64,000 bases of DNA from an uncultured Bradyrhizobium sp. (GCA_964609175.1 CAZSRR010000027.1:21276-85275); one strand, 5' to 3'; positions 18,692 through 60,785 are shown, counted from the first letter of the stretch. Notes: generated by a model not told the origin, from the letters alone. Numbers and translations are program-made.

Positions 18692-18975
18692 GACTTCGCT
18701 GCGCCGGCTCGTCTGTCCGTTCAACGCGCTTCCCCTCCCGTGACCGTCTTTTTATGGAATTGCGGTCGCGATGCGCGCCAAGCCTAGTCGATTGCGCGGC
18801 GAACGGGAAGCTATCCGAACGTCGGCGCGCGAATATGGCGCACGGCGTGTTTTTCTGGAGCCGCGCCATTCGTTCGCATACGCATCATGCAGCGATGTCT
18901 CTGTGGCTTGTAGCGGGTTCGTAGTACACGCCGCGGTGGGCGCAACGTCCCCTTTTGCGCAGCGAGCCCGACCAG

Positions 18976-21097: not shown

Positions 21098-21871
21098 CTA
21101 CCGCTCCGCGAACGCCTTCTCGACCACGAACTGCGCGGGCTCGCCGTGGTTGCCTTCGGCAAAGCCGCGGCCGTTCAGCATCGAACGCGTATCCGTCACC
21201 AGCGCGGGGCTGCCGCAGATCATGACGCGGTCGTGGGCGGGATCGAGCGAGGCCAGTCCAATATCGGCGAACAGTTTTCCGGAATTGATCAGGTCGGTGA
21301 TGCGGCCGCGGTTGCGGAACGGGTCGCGCGTGACCGTCGGGTAATAGACGAGCTGATTGCGGACATAGTCGCCGATGAGTTCGTCGTTCGGCAGTTTTTC
21401 GGTGATCATCTCGCCATAGGCGAGTTCCTTGACGCGGCGGCAGCCGTGCAGCAGCACCACCTTCTCGAACCGCTCATAGGTTTCGGGATCCTTGATCACC
21501 GACAGGAACGGGGCCAGGCCGGTGCCGGTGCCGATCAGATAGAGGTTGCGGCCGTCCTCCAGGTTGTCGATGACCAGGGTGCCGGTCGCCTTGCGGCTGA
21601 CGATGATCTCGTCGCCCTGCTGGAGGTGCTGGAGGCGCGAGGTCAGTGGCCCGTCCGGCACCTTGATCGAGAAGAATTCGAGCCGGTCCTCGTAATTGGC
21701 GCTGGCGACCGAATAGGCACGGAGCAGCGGCTTCTCGCCGACCTTCAGCCCGATCATGGTGAACTCGCCGTTGCGGAAGCGGAACGAGGGATCGCGCGTG
21801 GTGGTGAAGCTGAACAGCGTATCGGTCCAGTGGTGGACGCTCAGCACGCTCTCCTGGTTGAAATTGCTCAT
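21098..21871 (-). CDS. fpr: Ferredoxin--NADP+ reductase, bacterial subclass I
   Basis: VLSVHHWTDTLFSFTTTRD, LLRAYS, GTGTGLAPF, YYPTVTRD, MICGSP, C-terminal VVEKAFAER. Confidence 0.95.
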   Translation of the reverse strand: MSNFNQESVLSVHHWTDTLFSFTTTRDPSFRFRNGEFTMIGLKVGEKPLLRAYSVASANYEDRLEFFSIKVPDGPLTSRLQHLQQGDEIIVSRKATGTLVIDNLEDGRNLYLIGTGTGLAPFLSVIKDPETYERFEKVVLLHGCRRVKELAYGEMITEKLPNDELIGDYVRNQLVYYPTVTRDPFRNRGRITDLINSGKLFADIGLASLDPAHDRVMICGSPALVTDTRSMLNGRGFAEGNHGEPAQFVVEKAFAER

Positions 21872-21898
21872 CGCACCGTTCCCTGACCTGCGAGCCGA

Positions 21899-21941
21899 TT
21901 GACCGGCCGCATCATTGGTATACGATCATTCGTGTACAAAT
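21899..21941. promoter_or_regulatory. Divergent fpr/enamidase promoter with tandem operator-like sites ATTGGTATACGATC (21914-21927) and ATTCGTGTACAAAT (21928-21941)
   Basis: TTGACC-N16-TACGAT on the + strand; each site is an 11/14 match to one of the palindromes at 32375 and 32526. Confidence 0.6.
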
Positions 21942-22015
21942 GAATAATCCGGCTTGATCCGATCGTCAAGCCGGGCACAATGTCCGGCGAAGGCATTGAG
22001 GCAAAAGGAAAAACC

Positions 22016-23215
22016 ATGGCCCACGACGCACCCCAGGCGACCGGTCCGAGCAAGCTGGTGATCCGAAATATCGGGCTGATGCTGTCGGGGGCGCTGGAAA
22101 AGCCGATTCTCGACGGCGACACGATCGTGGCCGAGAACGGCAAGATATCGGCCATTGGCCGATACAAGGATCTCGACACCGAGGGCGCCACCACCGTCGT
22201 CAATGCCAACGGCACCACGGTGGCCCCGGGCCTGATCGACAGCCACGTCCATCCCGTCGCCGGCGACTGGACGCCGCGGCAGAACCAGATCAACTGGATC
22301 GACAGCTATCTGCATGGCGGCGTCACCACCATGATCTCGGCCGGCGAAGTCCACATGCCCGGCCGCCCCCGCGACGTGATCGGCGTCAAGGCGATGGCGA
22401 TCTTCGCGCAGCGCGCGTTCTGGACGCTGCGTCCGGGCGGCGTGAAGGTGCACGCCGGCGCGCCGGTGATTGAATGCGAAATGGTCGAGGACGACTTCAA
22501 GGAAATGGCTGCAGCCGGCGTCAAGCTGCTCGGCGAAGTCGGCCTCGGCGGCGTCAAGGACGGGCCGACGGCGCGAAAGATGGTGGGTTGGGCGCGCAAA
22601 TACGGAATCCAGAGCACGATCCACACCGGCGGTCCCTCGATCCCGGGCTCCGGCCTGATCGACAAGGACGTGGTGCTGGAAGCCGACACCGACGTGGTCG
22701 GCCATATCAATGGTGGCCACACCGCCCTGCCCGACGACCAGATCCGCTGCATCTGCGAGGGGTGCAAGCGCGGGCTGGAGCTGGTTCACAACGGCAATGA
22801 GCGCTCGGCGCTGTTCACGCTGCGCACCGCGCGCGAGATGGGCGATCTCCATCGCGTCATCCTCGGCACCGACGCGCCCGCCGGCTCCGGCGTGCAGCCG
22901 CTCGGCATTTTGCGGATGGTCTCGATGCTGTCCTCGCTCGGCGAACTGCCTGCCGAACTCGCCTTTTGCCTCGCGACCGGCAACACCGCGCGGATGCGCC
23001 AGCTCGACTGCGGCATCATCGAGGTCGGCCGCTCCGCGGATTTCGTCCTGATGGACAAGGCGCAGCACTCGCCGGGCAGGAATATCCTCGAAAGCGTGCA
23101 GCTCGGCGACCTGCCCGGAATCGGCATGACCATCATCGACGGCATCGTCCGCACCCAGCGCAGCCGCAACACCCCGCCCGCGGGTCAGGTACCTGTGATC
23201 GTTAGCGGGCATTGA
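22016..23215 (+). CDS. ena: Enamidase (amidohydrolase acting on 1,4,5,6-tetrahydro-6-oxonicotinate)
   Basis: PGLIDSHVH, GDWTPRQ, LHGGVTTMISAG, PGRPRD, RPGGVKVH, GEVGLG, HTGGPSIPGSG, HINGG, LGTDAPAGSG, SRNTPPA match my recollection of Eubacterium barkeri enamidase; nicotinate gene context. Confidence 0.85.
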   Translation: MAHDAPQATGPSKLVIRNIGLMLSGALEKPILDGDTIVAENGKISAIGRYKDLDTEGATTVVNANGTTVAPGLIDSHVHPVAGDWTPRQNQINWIDSYLHGGVTTMISAGEVHMPGRPRDVIGVKAMAIFAQRAFWTLRPGGVKVHAGAPVIECEMVEDDFKEMAAAGVKLLGEVGLGGVKDGPTARKMVGWARKYGIQSTIHTGGPSIPGSGLIDKDVVLEADTDVVGHINGGHTALPDDQIRCICEGCKRGLELVHNGNERSALFTLRTAREMGDLHRVILGTDAPAGSGVQPLGILRMVSMLSSLGELPAELAFCLATGNTARMRQLDCGIIEVGRSADFVLMDKAQHSPGRNILESVQLGDLPGIGMTIIDGIVRTQRSRNTPPAGQVPVIVSGH

Positions 23216-23351
23216 CAGCGGCACGGTTCACGAATGCGTGCAACGGGGCGTGAAAGTCACGCCTGACCTCGAAAGCGGTGAACAAATCCGCGGCCTTCGC
23301 GACCAATGCGAGCAGGCTTGATGGACACCTGCGCTCACCACCGAGGCAGAG

Positions 23352-24032
23352 TTGGAAAATTCGCTGCAAGTCGCCGGCGGGATCGTCGGCGCTGTCATAG
23401 GCTTTGTCGCAACGCTGCTGCTGCTGGAATTGTTCGGGTTCGGCAATCTCGCCGATCCGATCATGCCCGGCATGCTGGCACTGGTGTTTGCGCCGTGCGG
23501 CGCCGTCGCCGGCCAGTTGCTGGGCACCGCGGCCACACGATGGTTGCGTGGCGGCGAAGCCGGCCTGTCCCGCAGCGGCATGACGGCGTCTGCCGTTCTG
23601 ATCGGGCTTTGTGCAGCGGCGGCGGCCTCCTATTACGTCTATGCCGTCACGACGGCGACACCCTGGCTCAATCCAAACGCACCCAACCCGCTGCTGGTCT
23701 TTGAGATTCGGCTTCCTGCCGGGTCCAGCTTGCCGGACTCGGCCAGCGACATCACGGCCAAACTGCAAACCGATCTGAACACCATGTCCGGCGAGATGCA
23801 GCCCGACCAGTTCCGGCGCGATGACGACAGGCCGGTCATCGCCGGCTATGTCGAACTCCCGTTCCGGACTGCGTCCCGGCAGTTGCAGATGAAGATCAAG
23901 GGCCAGCCCGACCGGCTCTACCTCATCGGTCTGCCGGCGACAGCGCCGCATATGGCCGAGTTCGGGCCGTGGCAGGCCAATGCCGACGGCAGCGAAATCC
24001 GCTATCGCGCCCGCTGGCCGGGGCGAAACTGA
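23352..24032 (+). CDS. Hypothetical membrane-anchored protein (N-terminal TM helices plus soluble domain)
   Basis: 226-aa ORF with TTG start filling the gap between ena and marR; three hydrophobic N-terminal segments. Confidence 0.6.
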   Translation: MENSLQVAGGIVGAVIGFVATLLLLELFGFGNLADPIMPGMLALVFAPCGAVAGQLLGTAATRWLRGGEAGLSRSGMTASAVLIGLCAAAAASYYVYAVTTATPWLNPNAPNPLLVFEIRLPAGSSLPDSASDITAKLQTDLNTMSGEMQPDQFRRDDDRPVIAGYVELPFRTASRQLQMKIKGQPDRLYLIGLPATAPHMAEFGPWQANADGSEIRYRARWPGRN

Positions 24033-24084
24033 CGCCCGGCGAGCGGGCTCCCGGTTTCTGCTCCGCTTGGGGTTGTTGTCGGAG

Positions 24085-24540
24085 TCACCGCAGCTTCTCG
24101 AGCAGCGCCATCAAGGTCTCGCGCTCCTTTGCATCGAGCGGCGCCAGCGTCTCCTTCGAAATCGCGATCGCGTTGGGCGCGGCCTTTTCCGCCAGCTGCT
24201 GGCCGGCGCGCGTCAGGCTGACCAGCAGGCGGCGGCCGTCCTCGGGATCCGGGCTGGTCTCGGTGAGGCCGCGCGCCGTCAGGCGATCGATCACGCCCTT
24301 GATCGTGGCGACGTCCATCGACGTCAGCCGTCCGAGCAGGTTTTGCGAGCACGGTCCGGTTTCGTTCAGCTTGGCGAGCGCCGCCCATTGGGTCGGCGTC
24401 AGGTTGATACCGATTCCCTGGGCGAAGATGGTGGCATGGCGCTGCGAGACCTGGCGCAGGATGAAGCCGATCTGCTCGTCGAGGATGTAGGATGGCCGCG
24501 CCGGCTTGACGGCTCGTTTCGGCGAAACACTCCTGGCCAT
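24085..24540 (-). CDS. MarR family regulator (NicR/BpsR-like)
   Basis: YILDEQIGFILRQ..QRHA.IF, LTPTQWAAL, MDVATIKGVIDRL, DPEDGRR; last gene of the hnr operon. Confidence 0.88.
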   Translation of the reverse strand: MARSVSPKRAVKPARPSYILDEQIGFILRQVSQRHATIFAQGIGINLTPTQWAALAKLNETGPCSQNLLGRLTSMDVATIKGVIDRLTARGLTETSPDPEDGRRLLVSLTRAGQQLAEKAAPNAIAISKETLAPLDAKERETLMALLEKLR

Positions 24541-24562
24541 CTTTCGTCCCCTCCCCTGCCGC

Positions 24563-25267
24563 TCACAGCGACAGATGCGCGTCGCGGATGTCGGGCCGCG
24601 CGTCGAGTTCGGCCATCGTGCCGCCGAAGCAGATCCTGCCGCGCTCGATGATGTAGGCGCGATCGGAAATCAGCCGCGCGAAATGCAGATTCTGCTCTGA
24701 AACTACGATGCTGACGCCCTCGCGTTTCATCGCGAGGATGGCGTCGACCATCTGTTCGACGATCTTGGGCGACAGTCCCTCCGAGGGTTCGTCGAGCAGC
24801 ACCAGCGACGGGTTGCCCATCAGCGTGCGGGCGATGGTCAGCATCTGCTGTTCGCCGCCGCTCATCCGTCCGCCCGGGCGGTTGCGCATTTCGCCGAGAT
24901 TGGGAAACAGCGCGAACAGCTTTTCGCGGGTCCATTGCGGCGCGTTCGGCCGTTTCGGCTGGCGGCCCACTTCGAGATTTTCGTCCACCGTCAGATCCGT
25001 GAAGATACGCCGTTCCTCCGGCACGTAGCCGAGCCCGCCACGCACGATCGCGTGCGTCGGCTCGCGCGAGACGTCCTTGCCTTCAAAGACGATTTTCCCG
25101 GAGCGGTTCTCCACGAGGCCGACGATGGAGCGGAACGTGGTCGACTTGCCGGCGCCGTTGCGGCCGAGCAGCGCCACCACCTCGCCCTCGCCGACCTCGA
25201 GCGCGATATCGAACAGGATATGCGCCGGGCCGTAGAAACTGTTGAGATCGGAAACCTGCAGCTTCAT
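24563..25267 (-). CDS. Branched-chain-type ABC ATP-binding protein (LivF-like)
   Basis: GRNGAGKST, YVPEERRIF, MSGGEQQML, LDEPSEGL, SEQN. Confidence 0.93.
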   Translation of the reverse strand: MKLQVSDLNSFYGPAHILFDIALEVGEGEVVALLGRNGAGKSTTFRSIVGLVENRSGKIVFEGKDVSREPTHAIVRGGLGYVPEERRIFTDLTVDENLEVGRQPKRPNAPQWTREKLFALFPNLGEMRNRPGGRMSGGEQQMLTIARTLMGNPSLVLLDEPSEGLSPKIVEQMVDAILAMKREGVSIVVSEQNLHFARLISDRAYIIERGRICFGGTMAELDARPDIRDAHLSL

Positions 25268-26055
25268 GCGCCGGCTCCCTCGCGGTGGCGCGCATCGTAG
25301 ACCAGGCCTTCGCCGAGATAGATCGCGCGCACCTCGGGATTGCCGCGGACCTGCTCGGGCGAGCCCTCCGCGATCAGGCTGCCGCGGTTCAGCACCAGGA
25401 TGCGGTCGGCATGCTCGAACACCACGTCCATGTCGTGCTCGGTGAACAGCACGCCGATCGACTGCTCGCGGGCGATGCGCGCGGTGAGCCGCATCAGTTC
25501 GATCCGTTCGCGCGGCGCCATGCCTGCGGTCGGCTCGTCCATCAAGAGCAGTTTCGGCTGGTTGGCGAGCGCGATCGCGAGTTCCAGCCGCTTGAGGTCG
25601 CCATAGGCCAGTTCACCGCAGGGCCGCTCCGCATAGGCGCCCATGCCGACGAGATTGAGCAGCCGGCCCGCTTCCTCGCGCGCGTAGTTCGCGGTCGAGC
25701 CCCAGACATTGAACAATTGCCTTCCATAGGACACCAGCGCGACCTGCACGTTCTCGCGCACCGTCATGGTCGGGAACGTCGCCGTGATCTGGAAGGTGCG
25801 GCCGACGCCGAGCCGCCAGACCGCACGCGGCTTGCAGCCGACGGTCTCCTCGCCGAGCAGCGTGATCCGGCCGCTGTCCGGCGTGTTCTGGCCGTTGAGC
25901 ATGTCGAAACAGGTGCTCTTGCCGGCACCGTTGGGGCCGATCAGCGCCAGAATTTCGCCGGCGCGCAGTTCGAACGAGACGCTGCGCACGGCGTGCACGC
26001 CGCCATACGACTTGCTCAAATTCTCGACCGACAGCAATGCGGGCGTCGTGCTCAT
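25264..26055 (-). CDS. Branched-chain-type ABC ATP-binding protein (LivG-like)
   Basis: GPNGAGKST, GRTFQ, LAYGDLKRLE, DEPTAG, TEHDMD; start MSTTP overlaps the permease stop. Confidence 0.92.
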   Translation of the reverse strand: MSTTPALLSVENLSKSYGGVHAVRSVSFELRAGEILALIGPNGAGKSTCFDMLNGQNTPDSGRITLLGEETVGCKPRAVWRLGVGRTFQITATFPTMTVRENVQVALVSYGRQLFNVWGSTANYAREEAGRLLNLVGMGAYAERPCGELAYGDLKRLELAIALANQPKLLLMDEPTAGMAPRERIELMRLTARIAREQSIGVLFTEHDMDVVFEHADRILVLNRGSLIAEGSPEQVRGNPEVRAIYLGEGLVYDARHREGAGA

Positions 26056-27938
26056 TCGGCGGCCTCGACGCGTGAGGTGGCGTGCGAAGATTTGTTGTCG
26101 GTCGGCCGCCAGCGATTGGAAATCGTCTCCAGCGTGCCGACGATCCCCTTCGGAAAGGCCACCACCATCAGCACGATGAAGCCGCCAAGCACCAGTTTCG
26201 ACAGATCGGTCTGGCTGACCAGCCAGATGTTCGCCGCCTTGAACACGATGGCGCCGATCACAGCACCGGACACCGTCTCGACGCCGCCGAGCAGCACCAT
26301 GACCAGCGCATCGACCGACAGGGAGATGCCGAGGCTGTCCGGAAAAACGCTCCCCTTCAAATAGGCGAACAGCGCACCGCCGATGCCGGCGACCGTGCCC
26401 GAGATCACGAAGGCGGTCCATTGCACGCGCTTGCAGTCAATGCCGATCGCCTCGCTGCGGAGCGGCGAGTCTCGCGTGGCGCGGAGGGCAAAACCGAACG
26501 GCGAGAACACGATCACCCGCAGCACGGTGACGACGACCGCGGCGATCGCCAGCGACAGCCAGTAGAAGCTCGCAGGCCCCGCCGCCCATTTGTCCGGCCA
26601 GACACCCAGAATGCCGTTGTCGCCGCCGGTCACGCCCACCCACTGGAACGCGATCGACCAGACGATCTGCGCGAAAGCCAATGTCAGCATCGCGAAGTAG
26701 ACGCCGGAAAGCTGCACGGCGAAGAAGCCGAACACCGCGGCGCCCAGCAGACCCAGCACAGGACCAAGCAGCAGCGAGACGATCATCGGCAGCCCCGCCG
26801 CCTTGGCGAGGAATGCGACGCCATAGGCGCCGAGCCCGAAATAGGCGGCGTGGCCGAACGAGGCCAGCCCGCCGACCGACATCAGGAAGTGGAGACTGGC
26901 GGCGAAGATCACGAAGATCGAGATTTCCGAACCGACGGTGAGCGCGTAATTGCCGGCGAACAGCGGCAGCACCGCCGCTATGGCCAGCGCGCCGAGCGAC
27001 ATCAGCCGCTCGCCCGCGGTCAAAGGCCGCCACGGATTGACGGTCAAACCCGGCGTGCGCCGTGCGGCGGCTTCCGGCTTGCCGAACAAGCCCCACGGCC
27101 GAACGATCAGCACCGCCGCCATTACCAGGAACACCAGGATGATGGAGATCTTCGGGAAGATGAGAATACCGAAGGCGTTCAGTTCGGAGACCAGCACGGC
27201 GGCGACGAAGGCGCCGATGATGCTGCCGAGCCCGCCGATCACCACCACCACGAACACTTCGACGATGATGCGAAGGTCCAGCGCGTGATGCACGGCATCG
27301 CGCGGAATCTGCAGCGCGCCGCCGAGCGCGGCGAGAAAGACACCGAGCGCAAACACGCTGGTGAACAGCCATTTCTGATTGACGCCGAGCGCCGCGACCA
27401 TGTCGCGGTCTTGCGTCGCGGCGCGGACGAGAATGCCCCAGCGCGTGCGCTGGAACAGCAGCCACAGCCCGCCGAGCACGATGGGGGTGATCCCGATCAG
27501 GAACAGGTCATAGCTCGGGATATTCTGACCGAAGAATTCGACCGCCCCCTTGAAGCCCGGCGCGCGGCGGCCGAGCAGATCGTCGGGTCCCCAGATCAGC
27601 ACCACGATGTCCTGCACCATCAAGGTCAGGCCGAAGGTCGCCAGCAGCTGGAACAGTTCGGGCGCATGGTAGATCCGCCGCAGCAGCACCATCTCGACCA
27701 GCACGCCGACGGCGGCAACGACCAGCGCCGCCACCACGATGCCGCCCCAGAAGCCAAGCGCGCCGGAAAAACGCTCGGTCAGCGTGAACGCGACATAGGC
27801 GCCAAGCATGTAGAACGCGCCGTGGGCAAAATTCACGATCCGCGTCACGCCGAAGATGATCGACAGCCCCGACGCGACCAGGAACAGCGACGCCGCGCTG
27901 GCGAGACCGGTCAGGAACTGAACGAAGTAGAAGGCCAT
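26052..27938 (-). CDS. Fused LivH-LivM ABC permease
   Basis: Two permease domains: IVNFAHG...GGLGS and SFGHAAYFGLGAY...TGGDNG...LLGG. Confidence 0.9.
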   Translation of the reverse strand: MAFYFVQFLTGLASAASLFLVASGLSIIFGVTRIVNFAHGAFYMLGAYVAFTLTERFSGALGFWGGIVVAALVVAAVGVLVEMVLLRRIYHAPELFQLLATFGLTLMVQDIVVLIWGPDDLLGRRAPGFKGAVEFFGQNIPSYDLFLIGITPIVLGGLWLLFQRTRWGILVRAATQDRDMVAALGVNQKWLFTSVFALGVFLAALGGALQIPRDAVHHALDLRIIVEVFVVVVIGGLGSIIGAFVAAVLVSELNAFGILIFPKISIILVFLVMAAVLIVRPWGLFGKPEAAARRTPGLTVNPWRPLTAGERLMSLGALAIAAVLPLFAGNYALTVGSEISIFVIFAASLHFLMSVGGLASFGHAAYFGLGAYGVAFLAKAAGLPMIVSLLLGPVLGLLGAAVFGFFAVQLSGVYFAMLTLAFAQIVWSIAFQWVGVTGGDNGILGVWPDKWAAGPASFYWLSLAIAAVVVTVLRVIVFSPFGFALRATRDSPLRSEAIGIDCKRVQWTAFVISGTVAGIGGALFAYLKGSVFPDSLGISLSVDALVMVLLGGVETVSGAVIGAIVFKAANIWLVSQTDLSKLVLGGFIVLMVVAFPKGIVGTLETISNRWRPTDNKSSHATSRVEAAE

Positions 27939-27960
27939 GGGCGGTCCGGGTTACGTGGTC

Positions 27961-28130
27961 CCTTACCTCGCCCCACTTGCGGGGAGAGATCGGAATTCAA
28001 GCGCGCCTGAATTCCGGGTGAGGGGTACAGATCTGTCGATAGCGCAGGACTCGTGGTGAGAGCCCCGCACCCGACGCTCCAAGAGCGAGTTTCGCTCGTC
28101 TCGACCCCGCGAAGAGCGGGGGGAGAGAGA
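27961..28130. repeat. REP/RIME-like GC-rich stem-loop element inside the operon
   Basis: CCTCGCCCCACTTGCGGGGAGAG and ACCCCGCGAAGAGCGGGG hairpins between the SBP stop and the permease start. Confidence 0.65.
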
Positions 28131-28141
28131 GGAGCAAGAAC

Positions 28142-29347
28142 TCAATTCTTCGGGCGCATCTTCTCCACTTCGGCGTCGCTCGGCAGGTAGTCGCCGCCCT
28201 TGCGATAGACCGAATTGACCATCACGCCCTTGCCGTCCTTCAGCGCGGTCTTGCCGACATAGGCGCCTAACGTCGACTGGTGGTCGATCTTGCGGAAGGT
28301 GATCTCGCCGAACGGCGACGGCATCGACAGGCCCTCGGCCGCCGCGATCAGCTTCTCCGGATCGGTGGAATTGGCCTTGGTGAGGATCGCCGCCGCGGCC
28401 TTGATGGTCTGGTAGCCGACGATCGAGCCGAGGCGCGGATAGTCGTTGAACTTGGCCTGGTAGGCTTTGAGGAATTTGTCGTGGTCCGGCGTCTTGATGT
28501 CGTACCAGGGATAGCCCGTGACGATCCAGCCCTCCGGCGTCTCTTCTTTCAACGGATCGAGATATTCGGGCTCACCGGTAAGGAAGGACACGACCGAGCG
28601 GTTCTTGAACAGGCCGCGCGTGTTGCCTTCGCGCACGAGCTTGACGAGATCGGCGCCGAAGGTGACGTTGAGGATTGCTTCCGGGTTGGCGGCGGCCACC
28701 GCCTGCACCACCGGGCCGGCGTCGATCTTGCCCTGCGGCGGCCACTGCTCGTCGACCCACTGGATGTCCGGGCGCTTTTCCGACATCAGCTTCTTGAACA
28801 CGGCAACGGCCGACTGGCCGTATTCATAGTTCGGCGCGATGGTCGCCCAGCGTTTTGCCGGCAGCTTTGCCGCCTCCTCCACCAGCATCGCCGCCTGCAT
28901 GTAGTTGGAGGGGCGCAGGCGGAAGGTGTAGCGATTGCCCTTCGACCAGGTGATGGCGTCGGTCAGAGGCTCCGCCGCGAGGAAGAACACCTTCTTCTGG
29001 TTGGCGAAGTCGGAGACGGCCAAGCCGATATTGGAGAGGAACGTGCCGGCCAGCATCGCGACGTTCTCGCTCGACACCAGTTCGTTGGCGGCGGTCGTCG
29101 CGTCCGCCGGCTTGCCGCCGTCGTCCTTGGAGATGACGACGAGCTTCTTGCCGTTGATGCCGCCGGCGGCGTTGATCTCTTCGACCGCGAGTTGCCAGCC
29201 CTTGCGATAGGGCTCGGTGAAGGCCGGCAACAGCGAATAGCTGTTGATCTCGCCGACCTTGATCTCGCCGCTCTGCGCCATGGCGTTGCCTGCCATGCCG
29301 GCGACCGCAATCGCCAGCCCCGCGCCCAGTAAGTGTCTCCGCTGCAT
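28142..29347 (-). CDS. Branched-chain-type ABC substrate-binding protein (probable nicotinate-related uptake)
   Basis: RRHLL signal peptide, EINAAGGINGKKL, DDGGKP, APNYEYG; GGAGG RBS before ATG 29347. Confidence 0.88.
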   Translation of the reverse strand: MQRRHLLGAGLAIAVAGMAGNAMAQSGEIKVGEINSYSLLPAFTEPYRKGWQLAVEEINAAGGINGKKLVVISKDDGGKPADATTAANELVSSENVAMLAGTFLSNIGLAVSDFANQKKVFFLAAEPLTDAITWSKGNRYTFRLRPSNYMQAAMLVEEAAKLPAKRWATIAPNYEYGQSAVAVFKKLMSEKRPDIQWVDEQWPPQGKIDAGPVVQAVAAANPEAILNVTFGADLVKLVREGNTRGLFKNRSVVSFLTGEPEYLDPLKEETPEGWIVTGYPWYDIKTPDHDKFLKAYQAKFNDYPRLGSIVGYQTIKAAAAILTKANSTDPEKLIAAAEGLSMPSPFGEITFRKIDHQSTLGAYVGKTALKDGKGVMVNSVYRKGGDYLPSDAEVEKMRPKN

Positions 29348-29371
29348 CCCTGCCTCCAATGTACCTGTGAA

Positions 29372-29956
29372 CTACCGCAAGCCGTCTTCGCCTTTGACTT
29401 CCGTAACCGTCAGCCCGCCGACGCGCGGCAACGGCCTGCCGCTGTCGGTCACCGCGACCGCAACCATGATCTCGTTGGCGCACGGCGCGTCGTTGATCTG
29501 CACTTCCATGCCGTCGAAATGGCTGCGCACGAAGGCCGCATCCTTGTGGCCGAGCGGAATGTCGAGCGTCGTGCCCGGGCCGCTGCGCTTCTTGGACGAC
29601 GGGATCAGCGCCGCGCCCTTGCCCAAAACTTTCCGTACCGGCGCACCCATCTTGGGATGCAGGATCGCCGCCGCATGTTCCAGCTCGCCGTTCTCGCCGA
29701 CGGCTGCGGCCTTGCCGTAGCTGTGCGCCTTGGTACCGTCGATGCCGAGCGCGGCCACCGCCCTCCTGGAAAGGAGATCGCCGAGTTCCTCGCCGATCTC
29801 GATCAGGGGCGAAAGATCCTCGACATAGCGGCCGGCAAAGGGATTTACGATCACCGCGATCGCCGCGGCCCGCCGCGTCGGCGGCGAAACCTTCTGGCCC
29901 ATTTCGAGATGGGTTTCCTCGACCACCGTGACGATCTTGCGAATGATCGCGCTCAT
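29372..29956 (-). CDS. 'Amino acid synthesis' family protein (AA_synth/DUF1185)
   Basis: IRKIVTVVEET, AVIVNPFAGRYVEDL, YGKAAAVGENGELEH, IPLGHK, DAPCANEI, GRPLPR. Confidence 0.82.
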   Translation of the reverse strand: MSAIIRKIVTVVEETHLEMGQKVSPPTRRAAAIAVIVNPFAGRYVEDLSPLIEIGEELGDLLSRRAVAALGIDGTKAHSYGKAAAVGENGELEHAAAILHPKMGAPVRKVLGKGAALIPSSKKRSGPGTTLDIPLGHKDAAFVRSHFDGMEVQINDAPCANEIMVAVAVTDSGRPLPRVGGLTVTEVKGEDGLR

Positions 29957-29975
29957 CTGTCAGCCTCGCTCCCGA

Positions 29976-30872
29976 TCAAACACGTGCCACACTCTCATCC
30001 GTCGCCGGCAACGCACTGGCTCTGACCCCTGTTGAGCCCACCAAAGCCGTCTCGCCTAGTAGACGCAAGGCCGCACCTTCGATCAACCCCGCCGCAAGCA
30101 ATTGCTGTGCCCGCTCGACCCCGGCGGCCAGAGCCTCGTCAACCTCGTCTTCGCCGAGCCGGCGAACGGCGCGCGTGACGAGGCGCGCGCCGAGGTCGCT
30201 GTCGGCCTGCAATTCGTTTGCCGGCCGACGGACAATGCCGGGATGACCGGGCAGATCGACGGCATTGGCGATCACGGTGGCGGCGGCATCGGCTTGCGAG
30301 GCCGTTTTCGCCAGCACCGTCACGGCGTCGGCGATCCCGAGCGAAAAGCTGCGGCCATGCCGCCCGCTGGTCGCGATGCCCCGTGCCTGATCGCCAGCCC
30401 CGACGCGGATGGTCTGCATCACGCCGCGGTGGTCCGGCCGGTCCAGCAGCCCGACGGCAAACTGTTCCGCACCGGTCAGATGCAACGCGATGTCGCCGCC
30501 ATTGTTGACATAGGCGCGATCGAGCCGCGCCGCGGCAAGCATCGCGCCAAGAATTTCTTCGGCCACGCTGCCGGCGACTGCTGCCATCGGCGTGATGAAC
30601 TCGCTGGCCGAAAAGGGCGCCACCGCCGTATGCATGCGCCGCGCGACGACGCCGCGGAGCGCGCTGTCGGCCGGATCGGCCGCCTTTCGAAGCTCGGTCA
30701 GTTCTTCGCAGAGTTCATCGAGCAAGCCACCGAAGCGCCGCGCCGCCGCCTCGTAGGCCGCGTGCACCTCGCTTTCGGTTCCACTCGCACCGATGACGAG
30801 ATCAATCGGGCCATCCTGCAAATGCACCCGCTTGCCGTCAGGAAGAAGCGCGATTTGCGGAAGCCGTTTCAT
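29976..30872 (-). CDS. UPF0280 family protein (ApbE/Ftp flavin-transferase superfamily)
   Basis: LQDGPIDL, TPMAAVAG, NNGGDIAL, GIATSG, SFSLGIADAVTV, ADAAAT. Confidence 0.85.
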   Translation of the reverse strand: MKRLPQIALLPDGKRVHLQDGPIDLVIGASGTESEVHAAYEAAARRFGGLLDELCEELTELRKAADPADSALRGVVARRMHTAVAPFSASEFITPMAAVAGSVAEEILGAMLAAARLDRAYVNNGGDIALHLTGAEQFAVGLLDRPDHRGVMQTIRVGAGDQARGIATSGRHGRSFSLGIADAVTVLAKTASQADAAATVIANAVDLPGHPGIVRRPANELQADSDLGARLVTRAVRRLGEDEVDEALAAGVERAQQLLAAGLIEGAALRLLGETALVGSTGVRASALPATDESVARV

Positions 30873-32314
30873 GCGCGCCGTCCGGGCAAATGAGGTAGGG
30901 AGCGAAACTCAGTATTATCGCGGAGCGACGCCAGCGGGCGCACGTGATCCACGTGGCCGCCGAGCGCGGCGTAATCGGAAAGTTTCAGCGTGAACTCGAT
31001 CGGCGCCACCAGCGCCGGCGTCGGCACATAGCCGAACGCGCCCGCCGGCATCTGCGTGACGTCGACCATGAAGGTGATGCCGCCGCCGGGCCAGACATAG
31101 ACCGGCGCACCACCGCTCGTCACCCGCGTCAGCGCCTCCTTGACCGAGCGCGTCAGCCGCACCGGATTGTCGGTGACGCCGGCGCGCAGCGAACCGCCCG
31201 CGCCGCCCATGAACAGCACCGTGCACAGCGCCGGTTCGCAATTCTCCTGGATTCGCTCGACCGACAAACGAAGATCGGCCGGCATCTGCTTCTCGACCGG
31301 CTGCAGCGCTTCGTCCAGTTCGTAATAGGCCGCGTGCTCGCCGGTCGTCGATACCATCAGCATGGTCAGCCCCGGCCGCGCCTCCTTCGGGTTGAATGGT
31401 CCGAGCACCGACAGCGGATCGGAGATATTGGTGCCACCCCAGCCGGTGCCGGGCTCGGCGACCTGAAAATAGCGGCCGGGCGTCGAGCGCCGTCCCTTCA
31501 TCTTGATCCCGGTATCGGGAATATCGAGCAGCTTGCCCGCCTGGTGCTCGCTGAGAACGCCGGTGATGTGGTCGTCCACGACGACGACTTCATCGACCTT
31601 GCCATGCCATTGCTTGGCGAACATTCCGATGGTCGCCGAACCGCACCCGACCCGCATGCGCTCTTCGGCGACCCCGTTCACGATCGGCGGGTAGCCGGCC
31701 TGCACCACGACAGTGGCGCCGCCATCGATCGTCAGCTCCACCGGCTTGCAGTTGGAGAGGTCCATCAGCGCATCGCAGGTGACGCGTCCCTCTTTCTTGG
31801 AGCCGCCGGTGAGATGATGCACGCCGCCGAGCGACAGCATCTGCGAGCCGTATTCGCTGGTCGTCACGTGACCGATCATCTCGCCTTCCGCGCGCACGGC
31901 CGCGGTTTCGGGGCCGAGATAGCGGTCGGTGTCGATCTTCACCTTGACGCCGCAATAGCTGAAAATGCCCTCGGTCACGACCGTGACCATGTCGACGCCG
32001 TCGACTTCCGAGGACACGATGAAAGGCGCAGGCTTGTAGTCGGGATAGGTGGTGCCGGCGCCGATCGCGGTCACGAAGACATCGGACTCGTGGACGATCT
32101 TGCCGTCCCAGTCGCCGCCGGCCTGGAACGGCACCAGCCGCCCGCCATGCGACACCGTCCGCTCCAGCACGATGTGCGGATCGACGCGCACCAGTTCGCC
32201 GTCGTGATTGGCGTAACGATCGCACGCGCCCGCCGCGCCCGGCTTGATGTAGCACATCACCGGACAGGCATCGCAGCGGATCTTGTCGCCACCGGCGACG
32301 GTCGCATCGGTCAT
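30869..32314 (-). CDS. hnr: 6-hydroxynicotinate reductase (Fe-S flavoprotein)
   Basis: CDACPVMC..GACDRY, IGAGTTYP, KPAPFIVS, VTVVTEG, TSEYGS, MRVGCGSATIG, SEHQAG, GGSLRAG, VWPGGGITF, VPTPALVAPIEFT match my recollection of E. barkeri Hnr. Confidence 0.85.
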   Translation of the reverse strand: MTDATVAGGDKIRCDACPVMCYIKPGAAGACDRYANHDGELVRVDPHIVLERTVSHGGRLVPFQAGGDWDGKIVHESDVFVTAIGAGTTYPDYKPAPFIVSSEVDGVDMVTVVTEGIFSYCGVKVKIDTDRYLGPETAAVRAEGEMIGHVTTSEYGSQMLSLGGVHHLTGGSKKEGRVTCDALMDLSNCKPVELTIDGGATVVVQAGYPPIVNGVAEERMRVGCGSATIGMFAKQWHGKVDEVVVVDDHITGVLSEHQAGKLLDIPDTGIKMKGRRSTPGRYFQVAEPGTGWGGTNISDPLSVLGPFNPKEARPGLTMLMVSTTGEHAAYYELDEALQPVEKQMPADLRLSVERIQENCEPALCTVLFMGGAGGSLRAGVTDNPVRLTRSVKEALTRVTSGGAPVYVWPGGGITFMVDVTQMPAGAFGYVPTPALVAPIEFTLKLSDYAALGGHVDHVRPLASLRDNTEFRSLPHLPGRRA

Positions 32315-32374
32315 GAACAAGCCTGCGATCGAGAAAGGCGGGCGACCGGGCCACGTTTCCGCAGCCGGTCAATT

Positions 32375-32388
32375 GTTCGTATACGAAC
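32375..32388. promoter_or_regulatory. Perfect palindrome GTTCGTATACGAAC, candidate MarR operator over the hnr-operon start site
   Basis: Minus-strand TTGACA (32418-32413)-N17-CACCAT places the transcription start inside the palindrome. Confidence 0.7.
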
Positions 32389-32519
32389 GATGGTGCGCGC
32401 TGACGCGAGGGCTGTCAAGCGGTCCGCGAAGCGAAAATCCTTGCCTGCCGCATAATAGCTCATTTGCCTCGCATTGCTGTACATAAAGCAAGCACAGCGC
32501 CGCAGCGCAGCCGGGGCGC

Positions 32520-32547
32520 TTGCACGTTTGTACACAAACGGTATCCT
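32520..32547 (+). promoter_or_regulatory. nicA promoter TTGCAC-N16-TATCCT with operator GTTTGTACACAAAC (32526-32539) in the spacer
   Basis: Near-perfect 14-bp palindrome related to 32375-32388, between the -35 and -10 hexamers. Confidence 0.65.
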
Positions 32548-32597
32548 TCCCAGCCATCGCATGCAGGATTTTGCAGCGCAGCGAGGGCTTGAGGGGC

Positions 32598-33068
32598 ATG
32601 ATGCGGCTGACCGTCAACGGCAAGACCAGCGAGATCGATGCCGCACCTGACACCGCACTGCTTTACGTCCTGCGCAACGACCTCGCGTTGAACGGACCGA
32701 AATACGGCTGCGGGCTCGGCGAATGCGGTGCCTGCGCGGTGCTGATCGACGGCGTCGCGGCGCGTTCCTGCGTCATTCCGATCGAGGGCTGCGAAGGGCG
32801 CGACATCGTGACGCTCGAAGGTCTCGGCACGCGCCAGCGTCCCGATCCGGTGCAGCAGGCCTTCATCCATGAACAGGCGGCGCAATGCGGCTATTGCCTC
32901 AACGGCATGATCATCGCGACCAAGGCGCTGTTGTTGCGCTCGCCTGCCCCGTCCGACGGCGAGGTGATGGAAGCGCTGCGGCATCAGCTATGCCGCTGCG
33001 GCGCGCATGTTGAAATCATGCGCGCCGCGTTTCGCGCCGCCGGACGCGCGGTGGAGGCGCCCGTGTAA
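32598..33068 (+). CDS. nicA: Nicotinate dehydrogenase small subunit, 2x[2Fe-2S] (CoxS-like)
   Basis: KYGCGLGECGAC, QCGYC, LCRCG; start ATG 32598. Confidence 0.85.
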   Translation: MMRLTVNGKTSEIDAAPDTALLYVLRNDLALNGPKYGCGLGECGACAVLIDGVAARSCVIPIEGCEGRDIVTLEGLGTRQRPDPVQQAFIHEQAAQCGYCLNGMIIATKALLLRSPAPSDGEVMEALRHQLCRCGAHVEIMRAAFRAAGRAVEAPV

Positions 33069-36000
33069 TGACAGTGCCGGGCAACAAGGATCGCGAACGA
33101 ATGTCGGGCACCCTCGCCGTCGTCCGCCCCGCCTCTTCCGTCGAAACCGTCAAGTTCGAAACGTTCATCAGGATTACCGCCGACGGATCGGTCACCGCCT
33201 ATAACGGCCATGTCGATCTCGGCACCGGCATCCGCACCGCGCTCGGACAGATCGTCGCCGAGGAACTCGACGTCTCCTTTGCGCGCGTCGTCGTCGTGCT
33301 CGGCGATACCGCGCTCGTCCCCAACCAGGGCGCGACGATCGCGAGCGAGACCATCCAGATCACCGCCGTGCCGCTGCGCAAGGCGGCAGCGCAGGCCCGG
33401 CAGTTCTTGCTCATGCGCGCGGCGGAGCGGCTGGGACTTGCAGCGGGCGATCTCGTCATCGAGGACGGCCTGGTCCGCGGGCGCGACAATCGCAGCCTCA
33501 GCTATGGCGAGCTGATCGCCGGCGAAACCATCCAGCTCGAACTGGCCGACGACGTGCCTGTGAAGTCGGCCGACCACTACACCATCGTCGGGCAATCCAT
33601 CCCCCGCGTCGACCTGCCCGCAAAGGCCACCGGCGAACTGGTCTACGTCCACGACATGCGCGTGCCTGATATGCTGCATGGCCGCGTCGTGCGTCCGCCC
33701 TATGCCGGCGTCGATGTCGGCGACTTCATCGGCAACAGCCTGATCGCGGTTGACGAGGCATCGGTCAGCCATATCCCGGGGCTGGTCGCCGTCGTGAGGA
33801 TCGGCGACTTCGTCGGCGTCGTCGCCGAGCGCGAAGAGAACGCGATCAAGGCGGCGGCGCAGCTCAAGGTGAGCTGGAAGCCGGTGCCGACGCTGCCCGA
33901 CCTGAAGGACATCGAGACCGCGCTGCGCGCCAACCCGTCCGTGCCGCGAACGCTGATCGACAAGGGCGATGTCGATGCGGCGATTGCCGGCGCCGCGAAG
34001 CCGATGCCGCGCACCTACGTCTGGCCCTACCAGATGCACGCCTCGATCGGGCCGTCCTGCGCGGTGGCCGACTATTCGGAGGATGTGACGAGGGTCTGGT
34101 CCGGTACGCAGAACCCGCATCATCTGCGCACCGAACTGGCGCAGCTGATCCAGCGCCGCGAAACCGAGATCGAAGTGATCCGGATGGAAGCCGCCGGCTG
34201 CTACGGACGGAACTGCGCCGACGACGTTTCCGCCGACGCCGTGCTGCTGTCGCGCGCCGTCGGCCGGCCGGTGCGCGTGCAGTTGACCCGCGAGCAGGAG
34301 CACGCCTGGGAGCCGAAGGGCACCGCTCAGCTGATGGACGTCAACGGCGGATTGAACGCCGACGGCAGCGTGGCCGGATACGATTTCGCCACGCGCTATC
34401 CCTCGAACGGCGCGCCGACGCTGGCGCTGCTGCTGACCGGCGCGATCCCGCATGCGCCTGCGGTCTTCGAGATGGGCGACCGCACCGCGATCCCGCCCTA
34501 TGACTACGAAAACCTGCGCGTGGTGGCCAACGACATGCCGCCGATCGTGCGCGCCGCCTGGCTGCGCGGCGTCTCGGCGCTGCCCAATACATTCGCGCAC
34601 GAATCCTGGATCGACGAATGCGCGGCCGAGGCCGGCGTCGACCCGATCGAATACCGACTGCGCTACCTCAAGGATTCGCGCGCGGTCGATCTCGTCAAGG
34701 CGGTGGCCGAACGCGCCGGGTGGCAGCCGCGGCCGGTGCGGCAGGAAAAACAGGCCGAAGGCGACATCGTGCGCGGGCGCGGCTTCGCCTACGCGCTCTA
34801 CGTCCACAGCAAGTTTCCCGGCTATGGCGCGGCGTGGTCGGCGTGGATCGCCGACGTCGCGGTCAACAAGGCGACCGGCGACGTCAGCGTGACGCGCGTC
34901 GTGGCCGGACAGGATTCCGGCCTGATGATCAATCCGGACGGCGTGCGCCACCAGATCCACGGCAACGTCATCCAGTCCACCAGCCGGGCGCTGATGGAGG
35001 AGGTTTCGTTCGACCGCAGCTCGGTGACGGCGCGCGAATGGGGCGCCTACCCGATCATCAAATTCCCGGAGGTGCCCAAGATCGACGTGCTGATGCTGCC
35101 GCGGCAGGACCAGCCGCCGCTCGGCGTCGGCGAGTCCGCGTCCGTCCCAAGTGCCGCGGCGATCGCGAACGCGATTTATGATGCGACCGGCGTGCGTTTT
35201 CGCGAATTGCCGTTCACGCCGGAACGCATTCTGCGCGGGCTGCATGGCGAGCCGCAGCCGGTGCCGCAAGCCCTGTCCGCGCCGCCGCCGGCCGTCACGC
35301 CGCGCGCGTGGCAAAATCCCCTGGCCGGACGCGGCATGCTCGCGACCGCCGCGGCCCTCTGCGCCGCAGCCATCGGCATTGGCGCGGCCGTGTTGCCCTG
35401 GCGCGCAATCCCGCCGATCGCGCGGCCGGATGCCACGGTGTTCTCGGCCGCGACCATCGCACGCGGCCAGCAGCTTGCCGCGCTCGGCGATTGCGCCGTC
35501 TGCCACACGTCGGAGAATGGCGTTCTCAACACCGGCGGCCGCGCGCTGCGAACGCCGTTCGGCATCATCCACTCCACCAACATCACCCCCGACGTCGAAA
35601 CCGGCATCGGCGCGTGGTCCTATCCCGCCTTCGAGCGCGCAATGCGCGAGGGCATCCATCGCGACGGTCGGCACCTCTATCCGGCATTCCCGTATACGCA
35701 TTTCGCCAGGACAACCGATGCCGACCTGCAGGCGCTCTACGCCTACCTGATGGCGCAGCCGGCGGTGCGCGCCGAGACGCCGCCGAACGCACTGGCGTTT
35801 CCGTTCGACCAACGTCCATTGATGGCAGGCTGGAACGCGCTGTTCCACAAGGCCGAGACGTTCAAGCCCGATCCAGCCAGGTCCGAGATATGGAATCGCG
35901 GCGCGTATCTGGTCGAAGGCCTCGGCCATTGCAGCGCCTGCCATTCGCCGCGCAATGCGCTCGGCGCGGAGGTGACCACGGCTCACCTTGCCGGTGGCTT

Positions 36001-36610
36001 TGCCGACGGCTGGGAAGCGCCGGCACTGACGTCATTGTCGCGGGCGCCGATCCCGTGGAGCGAGGACGAGCTTTACGCCTATTTGCGGACCGGCGAGTCG
36101 CGGCTTCACGGCGTCGCGGCCGGACCGATGGCGCCGGTCGTGAAGGAACTGGCGGCGTTGCCGGATGCCGATATCCGCGCCATGGCGACCTATCTTGCTT
36201 CGTTCAACAAGCCTGCAACCGATACTGCAGCGCAGCAGGCGCTGGCTGCGCGACTGGAAGCCTCGACCAGCACACGCGCGGCCGCCGCCGCCGGCATCGG
36301 CGCCCGGATCTACCAGGGCGCCTGCGCGGTGTGCCACGAGGTCGGCGGGGCGCCGCTGTTCGGCAGCCGGCCGTCGCTGGCGCTGAACAGCAATCTGCAC
36401 AGCGCCGTCCCCGACAATCTGATCCATGTGATCCTGCACGGCATCGCCAAGCCGGCCGTGACCGACCTCGGCTATATGCCGGCCTTCAAGGACAGCCTGA
36501 CCGACGGTCAGGTCGCGGAACTGGCCGCCTATCTCCGCCGGCAGTTCGCCCCGGACAAGCCGGCCTGGACCAGCATCGAGGCGGCGGTCGGCCGGATCCG
36601 GCAGGAATAG
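33068..36610 (+). CDS. nicB: Nicotinate dehydrogenase large subunit: molybdopterin domains fused to a three-heme cytochrome c domain
   Basis: [43 protein letters not shown]; TM segment, then CAVCH, CSACH and CAVCH; 1180 aa, the architecture of Pseudomonas NicB. Confidence 0.88.
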
Positions 36611-36680
36611 GGCGCCGGGCTGCCATGCCGCCGCCAAAACCCACTGGTTGGGTGGCTCCCGGCACGGTAGAGTTCCGCCC

Positions 36681-37985
36681 ATGGCAGTTACCGATATTGC
36701 GTCCCGAACCTATAATCATGGCTGGCGGCTCGATCCGATCGTCCGCAGCCTGCTCGATACCGATTTTTACAAGCTGCTGATGCTGCAGATGATCCGCGAA
36801 TTCTATCCGGATCAGCAGGTCACCTTCTCTGTCATCAACCGCACCAAGCATGTCCGCCTCGCCGAAATCATCGACGAGGGCGAACTGCGCGCGCAGCTCG
36901 ACCATGCGCGCACCATCCGCTTCACCAAGAAGGAGCTGATCTGGCTCGCCGGCAACACCTTCTACGGCAAGACCCAGATGTTCTCGCCGGACTTCATTCA
37001 CTGGCTCGCCAGCTTCCGCCTGCCCGAATACGAATTGCACAAGGTCGACGGCCAGTACGAGTTGCACTTCCACGGCCCGTGGACCCACACCACGATGTGG
37101 GAAATCCCGGCGCTCGCGATCATGAACGAGTTGCGCTCGCGCCAGGCGACCAAGGGCCAGGGCCGCTTCGTGCTCGACGTGCTGTACGCCCGCGCCAAAG
37201 CCAAGCTGTGGTCCAAGGTCGAGCGGCTGCGCAAGCTCGAAGGCCTTCGCCTTTCCGACTTCGGCACCCGCCGCCGCCACGGCCATCTCTGGCAACGCTG
37301 GTGCGTCGAGGCGGTGAAGGAAGGCCTCGGCGCCTCCTTCACCGGCACGTCCAACGTCTTGCTGGCGATGGACAACGATCTCGAGGCGATCGGCACCAAC
37401 GCGCATGAGCTGCCGATGGTCGCCGCTGCGCTGGCGAATTCCGACGAAGAACTGCGCTGGGCGCCCTACCGCATTCTCGACCAGTGGCGGCATACCTATG
37501 GCGGCAACCTGCTGATCGCCCTGCCCGATGCCTTCGGCACAAAACCATTCCTGCGGGACGCGCCGGACTGGGTCGCCGACTGGACCGGTTTTCGCCCCGA
37601 CAGCGCGCCGCCGATCACGGCCGGCGAGGACATCATCAAATGGTGGAAGCAGAAGGGCCGCGATCCCCGTGAAAAACTGCTGGTATTCTCCGACGGCATG
37701 GACGTCGGCTCGATCGAGGAAACCTACAGGCATTTCTCGGGGCGCGTCCGCATTTCCTTCGGTTGGGGCACCAACCTCACCAATGATTTCATCGGCTGCT
37801 CGCCGGATGGCTCCGCCGATCTCGATCCGATCTCGCTGGTCTGCAAGGTGACGTCGGTCGATGGACGGCCGGCGGTCAAGCTTTCGGACAATCCCGAGAA
37901 AGCGACCGGCAGCCCGGCCGAGGTCGAACGTTATCTGCGCGTGTTCGGCAATGCCGGGCGCGTCCGCACCGCCGTGCACGTCTGA
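36681..37985 (+). CDS. pncB: Nicotinate phosphoribosyltransferase
   Basis: [65 protein letters not shown]. Confidence 0.95.
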
Positions 37986-60761: not shown

Positions 60762-60785
60762 TCGTGACCGTTATTGTTTGTTTCC

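Follow-up and report, generated by a model that had tools for sequence, protein, structure and literature searches.

A Bradyrhizobium nicotinate cluster of the published Azorhizobium type and the proposed roles of its conserved helper genes

What route does nicotinate take through a Bradyrhizobium gene cluster that places a Pseudomonas-type nicotinate hydroxylase beside a reductase and an enamidase of clostridial type, and what do the conserved genes lying between them contribute? The cluster occupies positions 21098-37985 of a 64,000-nucleotide stretch of DNA (the window) from an uncultured organism, which is a Bradyrhizobium as judged by the members of its 90%-identity protein clusters, which come from that genus. 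An initial annotation, made from the sequence alone, had read it as a hybrid island in which the hydroxylase feeds a clostridial-type reductive branch, followed by a lower pathway left open. We consider it highly probable that this is the published Azorhizobium/Bradyrhizobiaceae nicotinate cluster in its Bradyrhizobium form, with the pathway, regulation and helper roles proposed below. The cluster itself is nothing new: it is an ordinary, standard feature of the genus, described in 2006 and 2012. The interest lies in the roles of two widespread families, UPF0280 (PF27030) and DUF1185 (PF06684), and in the electron supply of 6-hydroxynicotinate reductase (Hnr) in aerobes.

The cluster was drawn by Shettigar in 2012 (PMC3511419, Fig. 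4) for A. caulinodans (AZC_2804-2790) and B. japonicum USDA110 (blr3818-3830), and the same paper places it in R. palustris HaA2 (RPB_1671-1658) and strain SG-6C. Passages of that paper cite Alhapel 2006 for the proteobacterial nicotinate cluster and state, citing Kitts 1992, that A. caulinodans channels 6-oxo-1,4,5,6-tetrahydronicotinate (THON) to the tricarboxylic acid cycle via glutarate; PMC9304392 summarizes the A. caulinodans glutarate route in the same way. The window shares with these clusters the nicotinate hydroxylase, Hnr, enamidase, an ATP-binding cassette (ABC) transporter, two conserved genes of unknown function, the proposed THON/glutarate route and, with B. japonicum, the genus. 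Nothing essential differs: the window comes from another strain, whose neighbouring pncB, metY and alpha/beta hydrolase genes are lineage-specific. In detail, we found an Hnr ortholog, an enamidase ortholog, adjacent molybdenum hydroxylase genes of predicted specificity, and a Liv-type transporter accompanied by DUF1185 and UPF0280. Because the same cluster is drawn in PMC3511419, the "hybrid" of the initial annotation is the known proteobacterial pathway: its combination of a NicAB-type hydroxylase bearing cytochrome c with Hnr and enamidase is there, but not as a novelty. The "island" is likewise present as a cluster, but the word is loose, as the base composition of the window is flat (62-69% G+C), with no compositional break at 21098-37985, and the cluster occurs throughout Bradyrhizobium.

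In the proposed upper pathway, nicotinate would be taken up by the Liv-type ABC importer and hydroxylated by NicAB to 6-hydroxynicotinate, with the electrons passing to the respiratory chain; Hnr would then reduce 6-hydroxynicotinate to THON, whose ring would be opened by enamidase to yield 2-formylglutarate and ammonia. Reading frames were chosen by third-position G+C content and annotated with Pfam and NCBIfam, the Pfam scan taking in about 50 open reading frames (ORFs) of the window. Domain and homology evidence located every gene that the initial annotation had listed, namely fpr, enamidase, MarR, the Liv-type ABC genes, hnr, nicAB and pncB. The gene nicA (32520-33068, plus strand, likely start ATG 32598; PF01799 and PF00111) encodes the 2x[2Fe-2S] small subunit of nicotinate hydroxylase and is joined through a TAATG overlap to nicB (33068-36610, plus strand; PF20256, PF02738, PF00034 and PF13442), which encodes the molybdopterin subunit in fusion with a cytochrome c domain of tri-haem type; three CxxCH motifs, at residues 809, 955 and 1086, confirm the three haems previously noticed. 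The short proteobacterial form of hnr (30869-32320, minus strand, start probably ATG 32314) was identified through its named homologs: the 483-residue product has no Pfam hit, and NCBI and JGI give the name 6-hydroxynicotinate reductase to homologs that share 85-96% identity with it. The product of ena (21980-23215, plus strand, start that may be 22016) matches the E. barkeri enamidase structure PDB 2VUN over residues 24-404 (E 1.3e-107; 45% identity in alignment A1), and the conversion of THON to 2-formylglutarate and NH3 was assigned to it by homology.

Eight minus-strand genes form one operon, in the order hnr, UPF0280, DUF1185, binding protein, LivHM, LivG, LivF and MarR, and several gene junctions of the cluster are ATGA or TAATG overlaps. 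UPF0280 and DUF1185, conserved between hnr and the transporter, were missing from the earlier gene list; it had rightly held that the accessory genes lack an experimentally assigned role, as far as the literature we reached goes. The importer comprises a periplasmic substrate-binding protein (28142-29359; PF13458, 232 bits), for which nicotinate or 6-hydroxynicotinate is the putative ligand, a fused livH/livM permease (26052-27938; PF02653 in two stretches, 240 bits), a livG-type ATPase (25264-26055, start ATG at 26055; PF00005 and PF12399) and a livF-type ATPase (24563-25267; PF00005), all on the minus strand, with ATGA overlaps between livHM and livG and between livG and livF. Between the binding-protein and permease genes lies an intergenic stretch of 203 bp (27939-28141), unusually long for the hnr operon, which holds several short G+C-rich inverted repeats, e.g. 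GGAATTCA-N8-TGAATTCC.

Conservation was assessed at several depths. Enamidase relatives in a species-level genome collection amounted to at least 557 confirmed loci, and the best 80, which were inspected, all belong to Bradyrhizobium or to closely related metagenome-assembled genomes. A locus search seeded with aligned enamidases of Bradyrhizobium and E. barkeri gave Bradyrhizobium-like loci only; distant clusters were reached by genome and contig searches, from which 10 distant hnr loci were sampled, and phyletic counts were taken over 401 sampled Pseudomonadota genomes. The core genes are conserved in 43-62 of 62 full-length Bradyrhizobium loci: fpr stands next to ena in 55, and marR was counted in 57, the transporter genes in 49-58, DUF1185 in 49, UPF0280 in 48 and hnr in 43; these numbers are lower bounds, since the loci stop 10 kb from ena. 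Orthologs of the substrate-binding protein, at 55-65% identity, occur in five of the 10 distant hnr loci.

The cluster of E. barkeri type, represented here by a locus (L113) whose enamidase is 97% identical to PDB 2VUN, resembles that of the window in its Hnr (40% identity), UPF0280 (33%), enamidase (47%) and AA_synth protein (53%), and in the adjacency of hnr to UPF0280; its ena adjoins the AA_synth gene. It differs in having a four-subunit NdhFSLM hydroxylase without cytochrome c, a LysR regulator, a transporter of PTS_EIIC_2 type and the lower-pathway genes hgd, mgm, mii, dml and dmd, which the window cluster lacks. With the nic cluster of P. putida KT2440 (Jimenez 2008), the window has in common the two-subunit NicAB, the cytochrome c domain on NicB and the MarR-type regulator NicR, whereas no NicC/NicX/NicD/NicF branch is apparent in it, and 6-hydroxynicotinate would here be reduced rather than decarboxylatively hydroxylated.

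A further difference between the two forms of Hnr bears on how the reductase receives its electrons. The clostridial Hnr carries at its N-terminus a 2x[4Fe-4S] ferredoxin domain of about 40 residues (alignment A4, locus L113), which is absent from all eight proteobacterial sequences aligned; these keep only a CxxCxxxC(x9)C motif, and no Fer4 Pfam hit was obtained for the window Hnr. In the same alignment, the four cysteines C16/C19/C23/C33 and a MRxGCGSATxG loop are invariant. Divergently from ena lies fpr (21098-21871, minus strand), a cluster-linked second copy of a bacterial-type ferredoxin/flavodoxin-NADP+ reductase gene whose product combines PF00970 (FAD_binding_6) and PF00175 (NAD_binding_1); it scores 159 bits against NF008178, under the cut-off of that model, and the Bradyrhizobium members of its 90% cluster are named ferredoxin--NADP reductase. 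A paralog 63% identical to it is encoded on contig C2 of the genome, and fpr lies in or beside the cluster in three lineages: Bradyrhizobium, genome G304 (68% identical, locus L108) and the g8 genus (51%, L112). We propose that the additional Fpr carries NADPH electrons to the proteobacterial Hnr, which would do without the clostridial input domain. The missing ferredoxin domain of Hnr, the linkage of fpr in three lineages and the paralog elsewhere support a dedicated NADPH-driven input; against it stands the presence of Fpr near hnr in just three of the 10 genera sampled, so that Fpr is not universal among Hnr clusters.

The gene following hnr encodes a protein of the UPF0280 family (29976-30872, minus strand; NF003322, 410 bits with a cut-off of 290), whose orthologs are recognized by PF27030. 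UPF0280, as defined by NF003322, was found in exactly the same 21 of the 401 genomes as Hnr, in 10 genera, always in single copy and always adjacent to it. The two genes overlap or abut in 10 diverse loci, with an ATGA overlap in the window, and in two clostridial-type loci, that of E. barkeri type and that of Acetobacterium bakii (L114), hnr is followed by a PF27030 gene labelled "AbpE_bact". The AlphaFold model of UPF0280 has a predicted local distance difference test (pLDDT) score of 88 and a predicted template modelling (pTM) score of 0.88. When it was submitted to Foldseek, 2O34 (DUF375) was retrieved, then only about 40 chains of ApbE, Ftp and FmnB (E 2e-6 to 1e-2, probability ~1.0), after which the list falls to noise (E>0.18). 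A profile search against PDB sequences retrieved 2O34 only, and hhalign aligned UPF0280 with E. coli Ftp at a probability of 52% and E 1.5e-4, pairing GIATSG with GISTSG and VTVLA..ADAAAT with VTVIA..EADAWDT. The ATSG residues and the D and T of ADAAAT, which align to the metal/pyrophosphate site of ApbE, are invariant in 11 diverse UPF0280 sequences.

From this pattern of occurrence and the predicted structure, UPF0280 is probably a maturation factor of Hnr; it would belong to the ApbE superfamily and possibly acts as a flavin transferase, the most likely task being the installation of a covalently bound flavin, which E. barkeri Hnr reportedly carries. With the ApbE/Ftp/FmnB FAD:protein FMN transferases (PF02424) it would share the overall fold, as predicted, and the ATSG and VTV.A..ADA.T metal/pyrophosphate motifs; it differs from them in being cytoplasmic and shorter, and its activity here is a prediction. 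Several points weigh against a transferase. The TM-scores to ApbE are just 0.35-0.47, the His-containing HxIDPxTG loop of ApbE has no counterpart in the hhalign alignment, the Pfam scan gave no PF02424 match for the window protein at E<=0.001, with only a faint one for the clostridial orthologs (PF27030), and the presumed target, Hnr, has an invariant GCGSAT in place of the canonical ApbE target motif [ST]GA[TS].

These points lend some weight to a competing view, to which we give a minor though real share of probability, that UPF0280 is another kind of obligate Hnr partner, i.e. a structural subunit, a factor inserting an Fe-S cluster or other cofactor, or an enzyme acting on THON, and not a flavin transferase. 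The missing catalytic-loop His and the remoteness of the ApbE similarity would fit it, as would an Hnr devoid of the canonical flavinylation motif; moreover, the translational coupling through ATGA suggests equimolar synthesis, as for subunits, and fused Hnr-UPF0280 ORFs occasionally occur in metagenomes. It is countered by the invariance of the residues aligned to the metal/pyrophosphate site in the 11 sequences, and by the significant structural neighbours of known function, which are all FMN transferases. We retain the maturation factor, with flavin transfer as its possible activity. Proof of such an activity in the cytoplasmic UPF0280 would extend ApbE-type flavinylation to a new class of targets.

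Five metagenome ORFs of 650-765 residues (P0077, P0164, P0167, P0080 and P0064) look like Hnr fused to another part; in P0077 this part is UPF0280, and P0164 and P0167 carry a PF27030 domain. The Hnr-UPF0280 ORFs may have arisen naturally, by fusion across the ATGA overlap, or else be artefacts of frameshift or assembly.

The second conserved helper, a DUF1185/AA_synth protein (29372-29956, minus strand; PF06684, 247 bits), matches PDB 2QTP at E 8e-86, and its model superimposes on 3BYQ and 2QTP with TM-scores of 0.86-0.95; Foldseek found nothing convincing for this model outside its own family, which has a Bacillus chorismate mutase (BCM)-like fold and is hexameric (PMC2954203). DUF1185 occurs in 49 of the 401 genomes, comprising 20 of the 21 Hnr genomes and 29 others. 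The tree separates three clades. Clade A (support 99/97), with the window protein, is found only where enamidase is present. Members of clade B (100/100) are neighbours of UPF0280, whether or not the cluster contains enamidase, and are also found in two loci devoid of hnr (L131 and L135). The third clade (100/100) lies, in the members checked (L116, L119 and L123), beside an alpha/beta hydrolase gene, and the operon of L123 continues with genes for a flavin reductase, a luciferase-like oxygenase, an aldehyde dehydrogenase (ALDH) and a NIPSNAP protein. In the clostridial loci (L113 and L114) an AA_synth gene directly follows ena, and the window protein is 53% identical to that of the E. barkeri-type locus. 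The third-clade operons of L116, L119, L123 and L130 are of the trigonelline (tgn) cluster type.

TgnF of the Acinetobacter baylyi trigonelline cluster is a DUF1185 protein that, in the wording of a passage of PMC7913881 citing Perchat 2018, "stimulates TgnE-dependent succinic semialdehyde oxidation". Like the window protein, it belongs to PF06684 and to a catabolic operon for pyridine carboxylates, in which its place is the conversion of a ring-opened 2-(amino/formamido)methylene dicarboxylate to an aldehyde; unlike it, TgnF falls in a separate clade (100/100 support) and has as partners an alpha/beta hydrolase and an ALDH, with no enamidase, the window protein grouping in the tree with the enamidase-linked copies, outside the TgnF clade. 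The step at which TgnF reportedly acts is the loss of CO2 from a 2-formyl-dicarboxylate, which yields succinate semialdehyde. By analogy with TgnF, DUF1185 may act at the enamidase step or immediately after it, its target being the 2-formyl-dicarboxylate or the enamine/enol precursor of this compound. Two observations count against this: DUF1185 is entirely absent from one of the Hnr genomes (G224), and purified enamidase alone is described as bifunctional (PMC9304392), so that DUF1185 is not strictly required in vitro.

One could also suppose that DUF1185 is the missing 2-formylglutarate decarboxylase of Bradyrhizobium, catalysing the first proteobacterial step of the lower pathway. No other soluble, enzyme-like product of the operon lacks an assignment, and the homologous TgnF reportedly acts at the step of the trigonelline pathway that loses CO2. 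This we regard as unlikely, for a clade-related gene follows ena in the clusters of E. barkeri type, where 2-formylglutarate is reduced and not decarboxylated. Because of this reduction in E. barkeri, a role shared by both kinds of cluster, such as handling the enamine/enol form or the free aldehyde of the 2-formyl-dicarboxylate, is more likely than a dedicated decarboxylase. The Pfam name "amino acid synthesis" looks misleading, and would be corrected once DUF1185 had a role.

Beyond enamidase, 2-formylglutarate would be converted by decarboxylation and oxidation to glutarate, and then through glutaryl-coenzyme A (CoA) to crotonyl-CoA, as published for A. caulinodans, by genes lying outside the cluster. 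As the initial annotation had noted, the Pfam scan of the window revealed no lower-pathway gene. The single acyl-CoA dehydrogenase of the window, encoded at 3940-5181, was considered as glutaryl-CoA dehydrogenase (GcdH) and rejected, being ACAD11-like. A hidden Markov model search of all ORFs of the genome (7.05 Mb, 99.3% complete) recovered a GcdH ortholog on another contig (C23:66428-67642). This ortholog, which scores 621 bits against B. pseudomallei GcdH (3GNC) and 575 bits against human GCDH, fits the published glutarate route. The description of the lower pathway as unresolved therefore stands only in part: the glutarate route is published and a GcdH ortholog exists elsewhere in the genome, while the genes of the other steps were not identified. 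Similarly, known lower-pathway genes elsewhere that account for the flux, which the initial annotation had named as evidence that would overturn it, were found in part, as this one ortholog. Two results weaken the glutarate route: the surroundings of gcdH show no CoA transferase or pathway-specific genes, and no gene was assigned to the decarboxylation of 2-formylglutarate, to the oxidation of glutarate semialdehyde or to the CoA transferase.

Could the cluster instead feed a clostridial-type lower branch encoded elsewhere in the genome, leading from 2-formylglutarate through 2-(hydroxymethyl)glutarate, 2-methyleneglutarate, methylitaconate and dimethylmalate to propionate and pyruvate? Homologs of Hgd (36% identity) and Dml (46%) are present, as are aconitase-type dehydratases, but they belong to large generic families. 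The genes that define the branch gave no tblastn match at E<=1e-5 in the whole genome, neither 2-methyleneglutarate mutase (mgm) nor methylitaconate isomerase (mii), nor Hmd, nor the MutL-like reactivase, nor the 468-residue gene beside dml. We hold this branch to be extremely improbable.

NicAB and the MarR regulator of Pseudomonas type would suit a flux of 6-hydroxynicotinate mainly through the maleamate pathway (NicC/NicX/NicD/NicF) encoded elsewhere, Hnr and enamidase being a side route. However, hnr and ena belong to the same regulatory unit as nicAB. The NicX 2,5-dihydroxypyridine dioxygenase is taken here to be a member of PF02073 (M29), and the sole gene of this family in the genome proved to be orthologous to aminopeptidase T (479 bits), its matches including no NicX structure; with PF02073 as a proxy, whose power to detect NicX was assumed, no NicX-like gene was detected in the genome. 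NicC, NicD and NicF were not apparent among the window ORFs in the general Pfam scans, which included no search aimed at them. A main flux through maleamate is, in our judgement, very improbable, and the glutarate route remains the preferred fate of 2-formylglutarate.

The proposed regulatory unit just mentioned rests on a palindrome, TTCGTATACGAA. A perfect copy, a candidate MarR operator, lies at 32376-32387 between hnr and nicA, and two degenerate copies, also candidate operators, lie at 21915-21940 (starting at 21915 and 21929) in the divergent promoter region of fpr and ena. Allowing up to 2 mismatches, the window contains six matches vs 0.52 expected. The regulator itself, a NicR-like MarR-family protein (24085-24540, minus strand; PF01047), has 90% cluster members named in JGI as regulator of the "lower aerobic nicotinate degradation pathway", and its gene is present in nine of the 10 distant hnr loci. 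Judging from these motifs, the MarR protein probably represses both divergent promoter regions, hnr/nicA and fpr/ena, through TTCGTATACGAA. The presence of the palindrome at both regions ties fpr-ena to hnr/nicAB as a single MarR-controlled unit. The only other perfect copy in the genome (C19:40311) was considered as a member of the regulon and rejected: an apparent coding region on the minus strand encloses it, and the match is probably due to chance. A degenerate operator palindrome, TTCGCATACGCA, is found at 18873-18884, about 70 bp upstream of a major facilitator superfamily transporter gene (18955-20364) that is present in 22 of 62 related loci.

Taken together, the three helper genes might explain how an aerobe uses chemistry first described in a strict anaerobe, a joint proposal that we put forward only tentatively. 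Within the ApbE superfamily, UPF0280 would constitute a new branch, cytoplasmic and devoid of the His, that covalently flavinylates Hnr at a non-canonical site, and the dedicated Fpr paralog would feed NADPH electrons to an Hnr that has shed its ferredoxin-accepting 2x[4Fe-4S] domain. DUF1185, for its part, would assist the catabolism of pyridine carboxylates in general, delivering the free 2-formyl-dicarboxylate as an enamine/enol tautomerase or deaminase, with clade A paired to enamidase, clade B to Hnr and HyuAB, and TgnF to the hydrolase and ALDH of trigonelline breakdown. A recent study links the turnover of nicotinate by root bacteria to plant immunity through 6-hydroxynicotinate (PMC13510662), so the consumption of this compound by rhizobia is of some ecological interest.

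Ring opening appears to vary among the distant clusters. Eight of 12 Hnr-containing genomes with the hnr-UPF0280-DUF1185 arrangement have no enamidase homolog anywhere, and, of seven enamidase-less clusters examined (L104-L107 and L110-L112), six (L105-L107 and L110-L112) carry HyuA and/or HyuB of the hydantoinase/oxoprolinase type within a 20-kb locus, orthologous to one another at 61-74% identity. The HyuAB found in place of enamidase suggests that these clusters may represent a variant with ATP-dependent opening of the THON lactam, which does not concern the window, where enamidase is present. The window has its own HyuA and HyuB genes (57055-62333), next to a class-III aminotransferase gene; they are probably unrelated to nicotinate, being just 33-35% identical to the hnr-linked HyuAB of other genomes.

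Genome G304, from a different class, has a cluster (L108/L141) that keeps the Bradyrhizobium gene order throughout, with fpr adjoining ena, at 51-69% protein identity; both clade A and clade B copies of DUF1185 are present in it. This synteny suggests a transfer of the cluster between classes.

Downstream of nicB lies pncB (36648-37985, plus strand; NF003704, 507 bits), the sole gene of the genome for nicotinate phosphoribosyltransferase, an enzyme of NAD salvage. The initial annotation had included it in the cluster; the gene is there, but not as a core member. It follows nicB, with genes for a Cys/Met pyridoxal phosphate enzyme, an alpha/beta hydrolase, a glucose-methanol-choline (GMC) oxidoreductase and a flavin-containing monooxygenase, in no more than two loci, those of the closest relatives (L138 and L139), and is not behind nicB in L136. 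Because of this restriction, we regard pncB and the genes downstream as neighbours and not as parts of the pathway. Between ena and marR, orf226 (23352-24032, plus strand) encodes a hypothetical protein of 226 residues without a Pfam or NCBIfam family, probably a membrane protein as judged by its hydrophobic N-terminal segments; a singleton at 90% identity, it recurs in 16 of the 62 Bradyrhizobium loci at 51-54% identity and is outside the core cluster. Further downstream, at 44472-47804, a single ORF of 1110 residues fuses a biotin carboxylase, a biotinyl domain and a carboxyltransferase.

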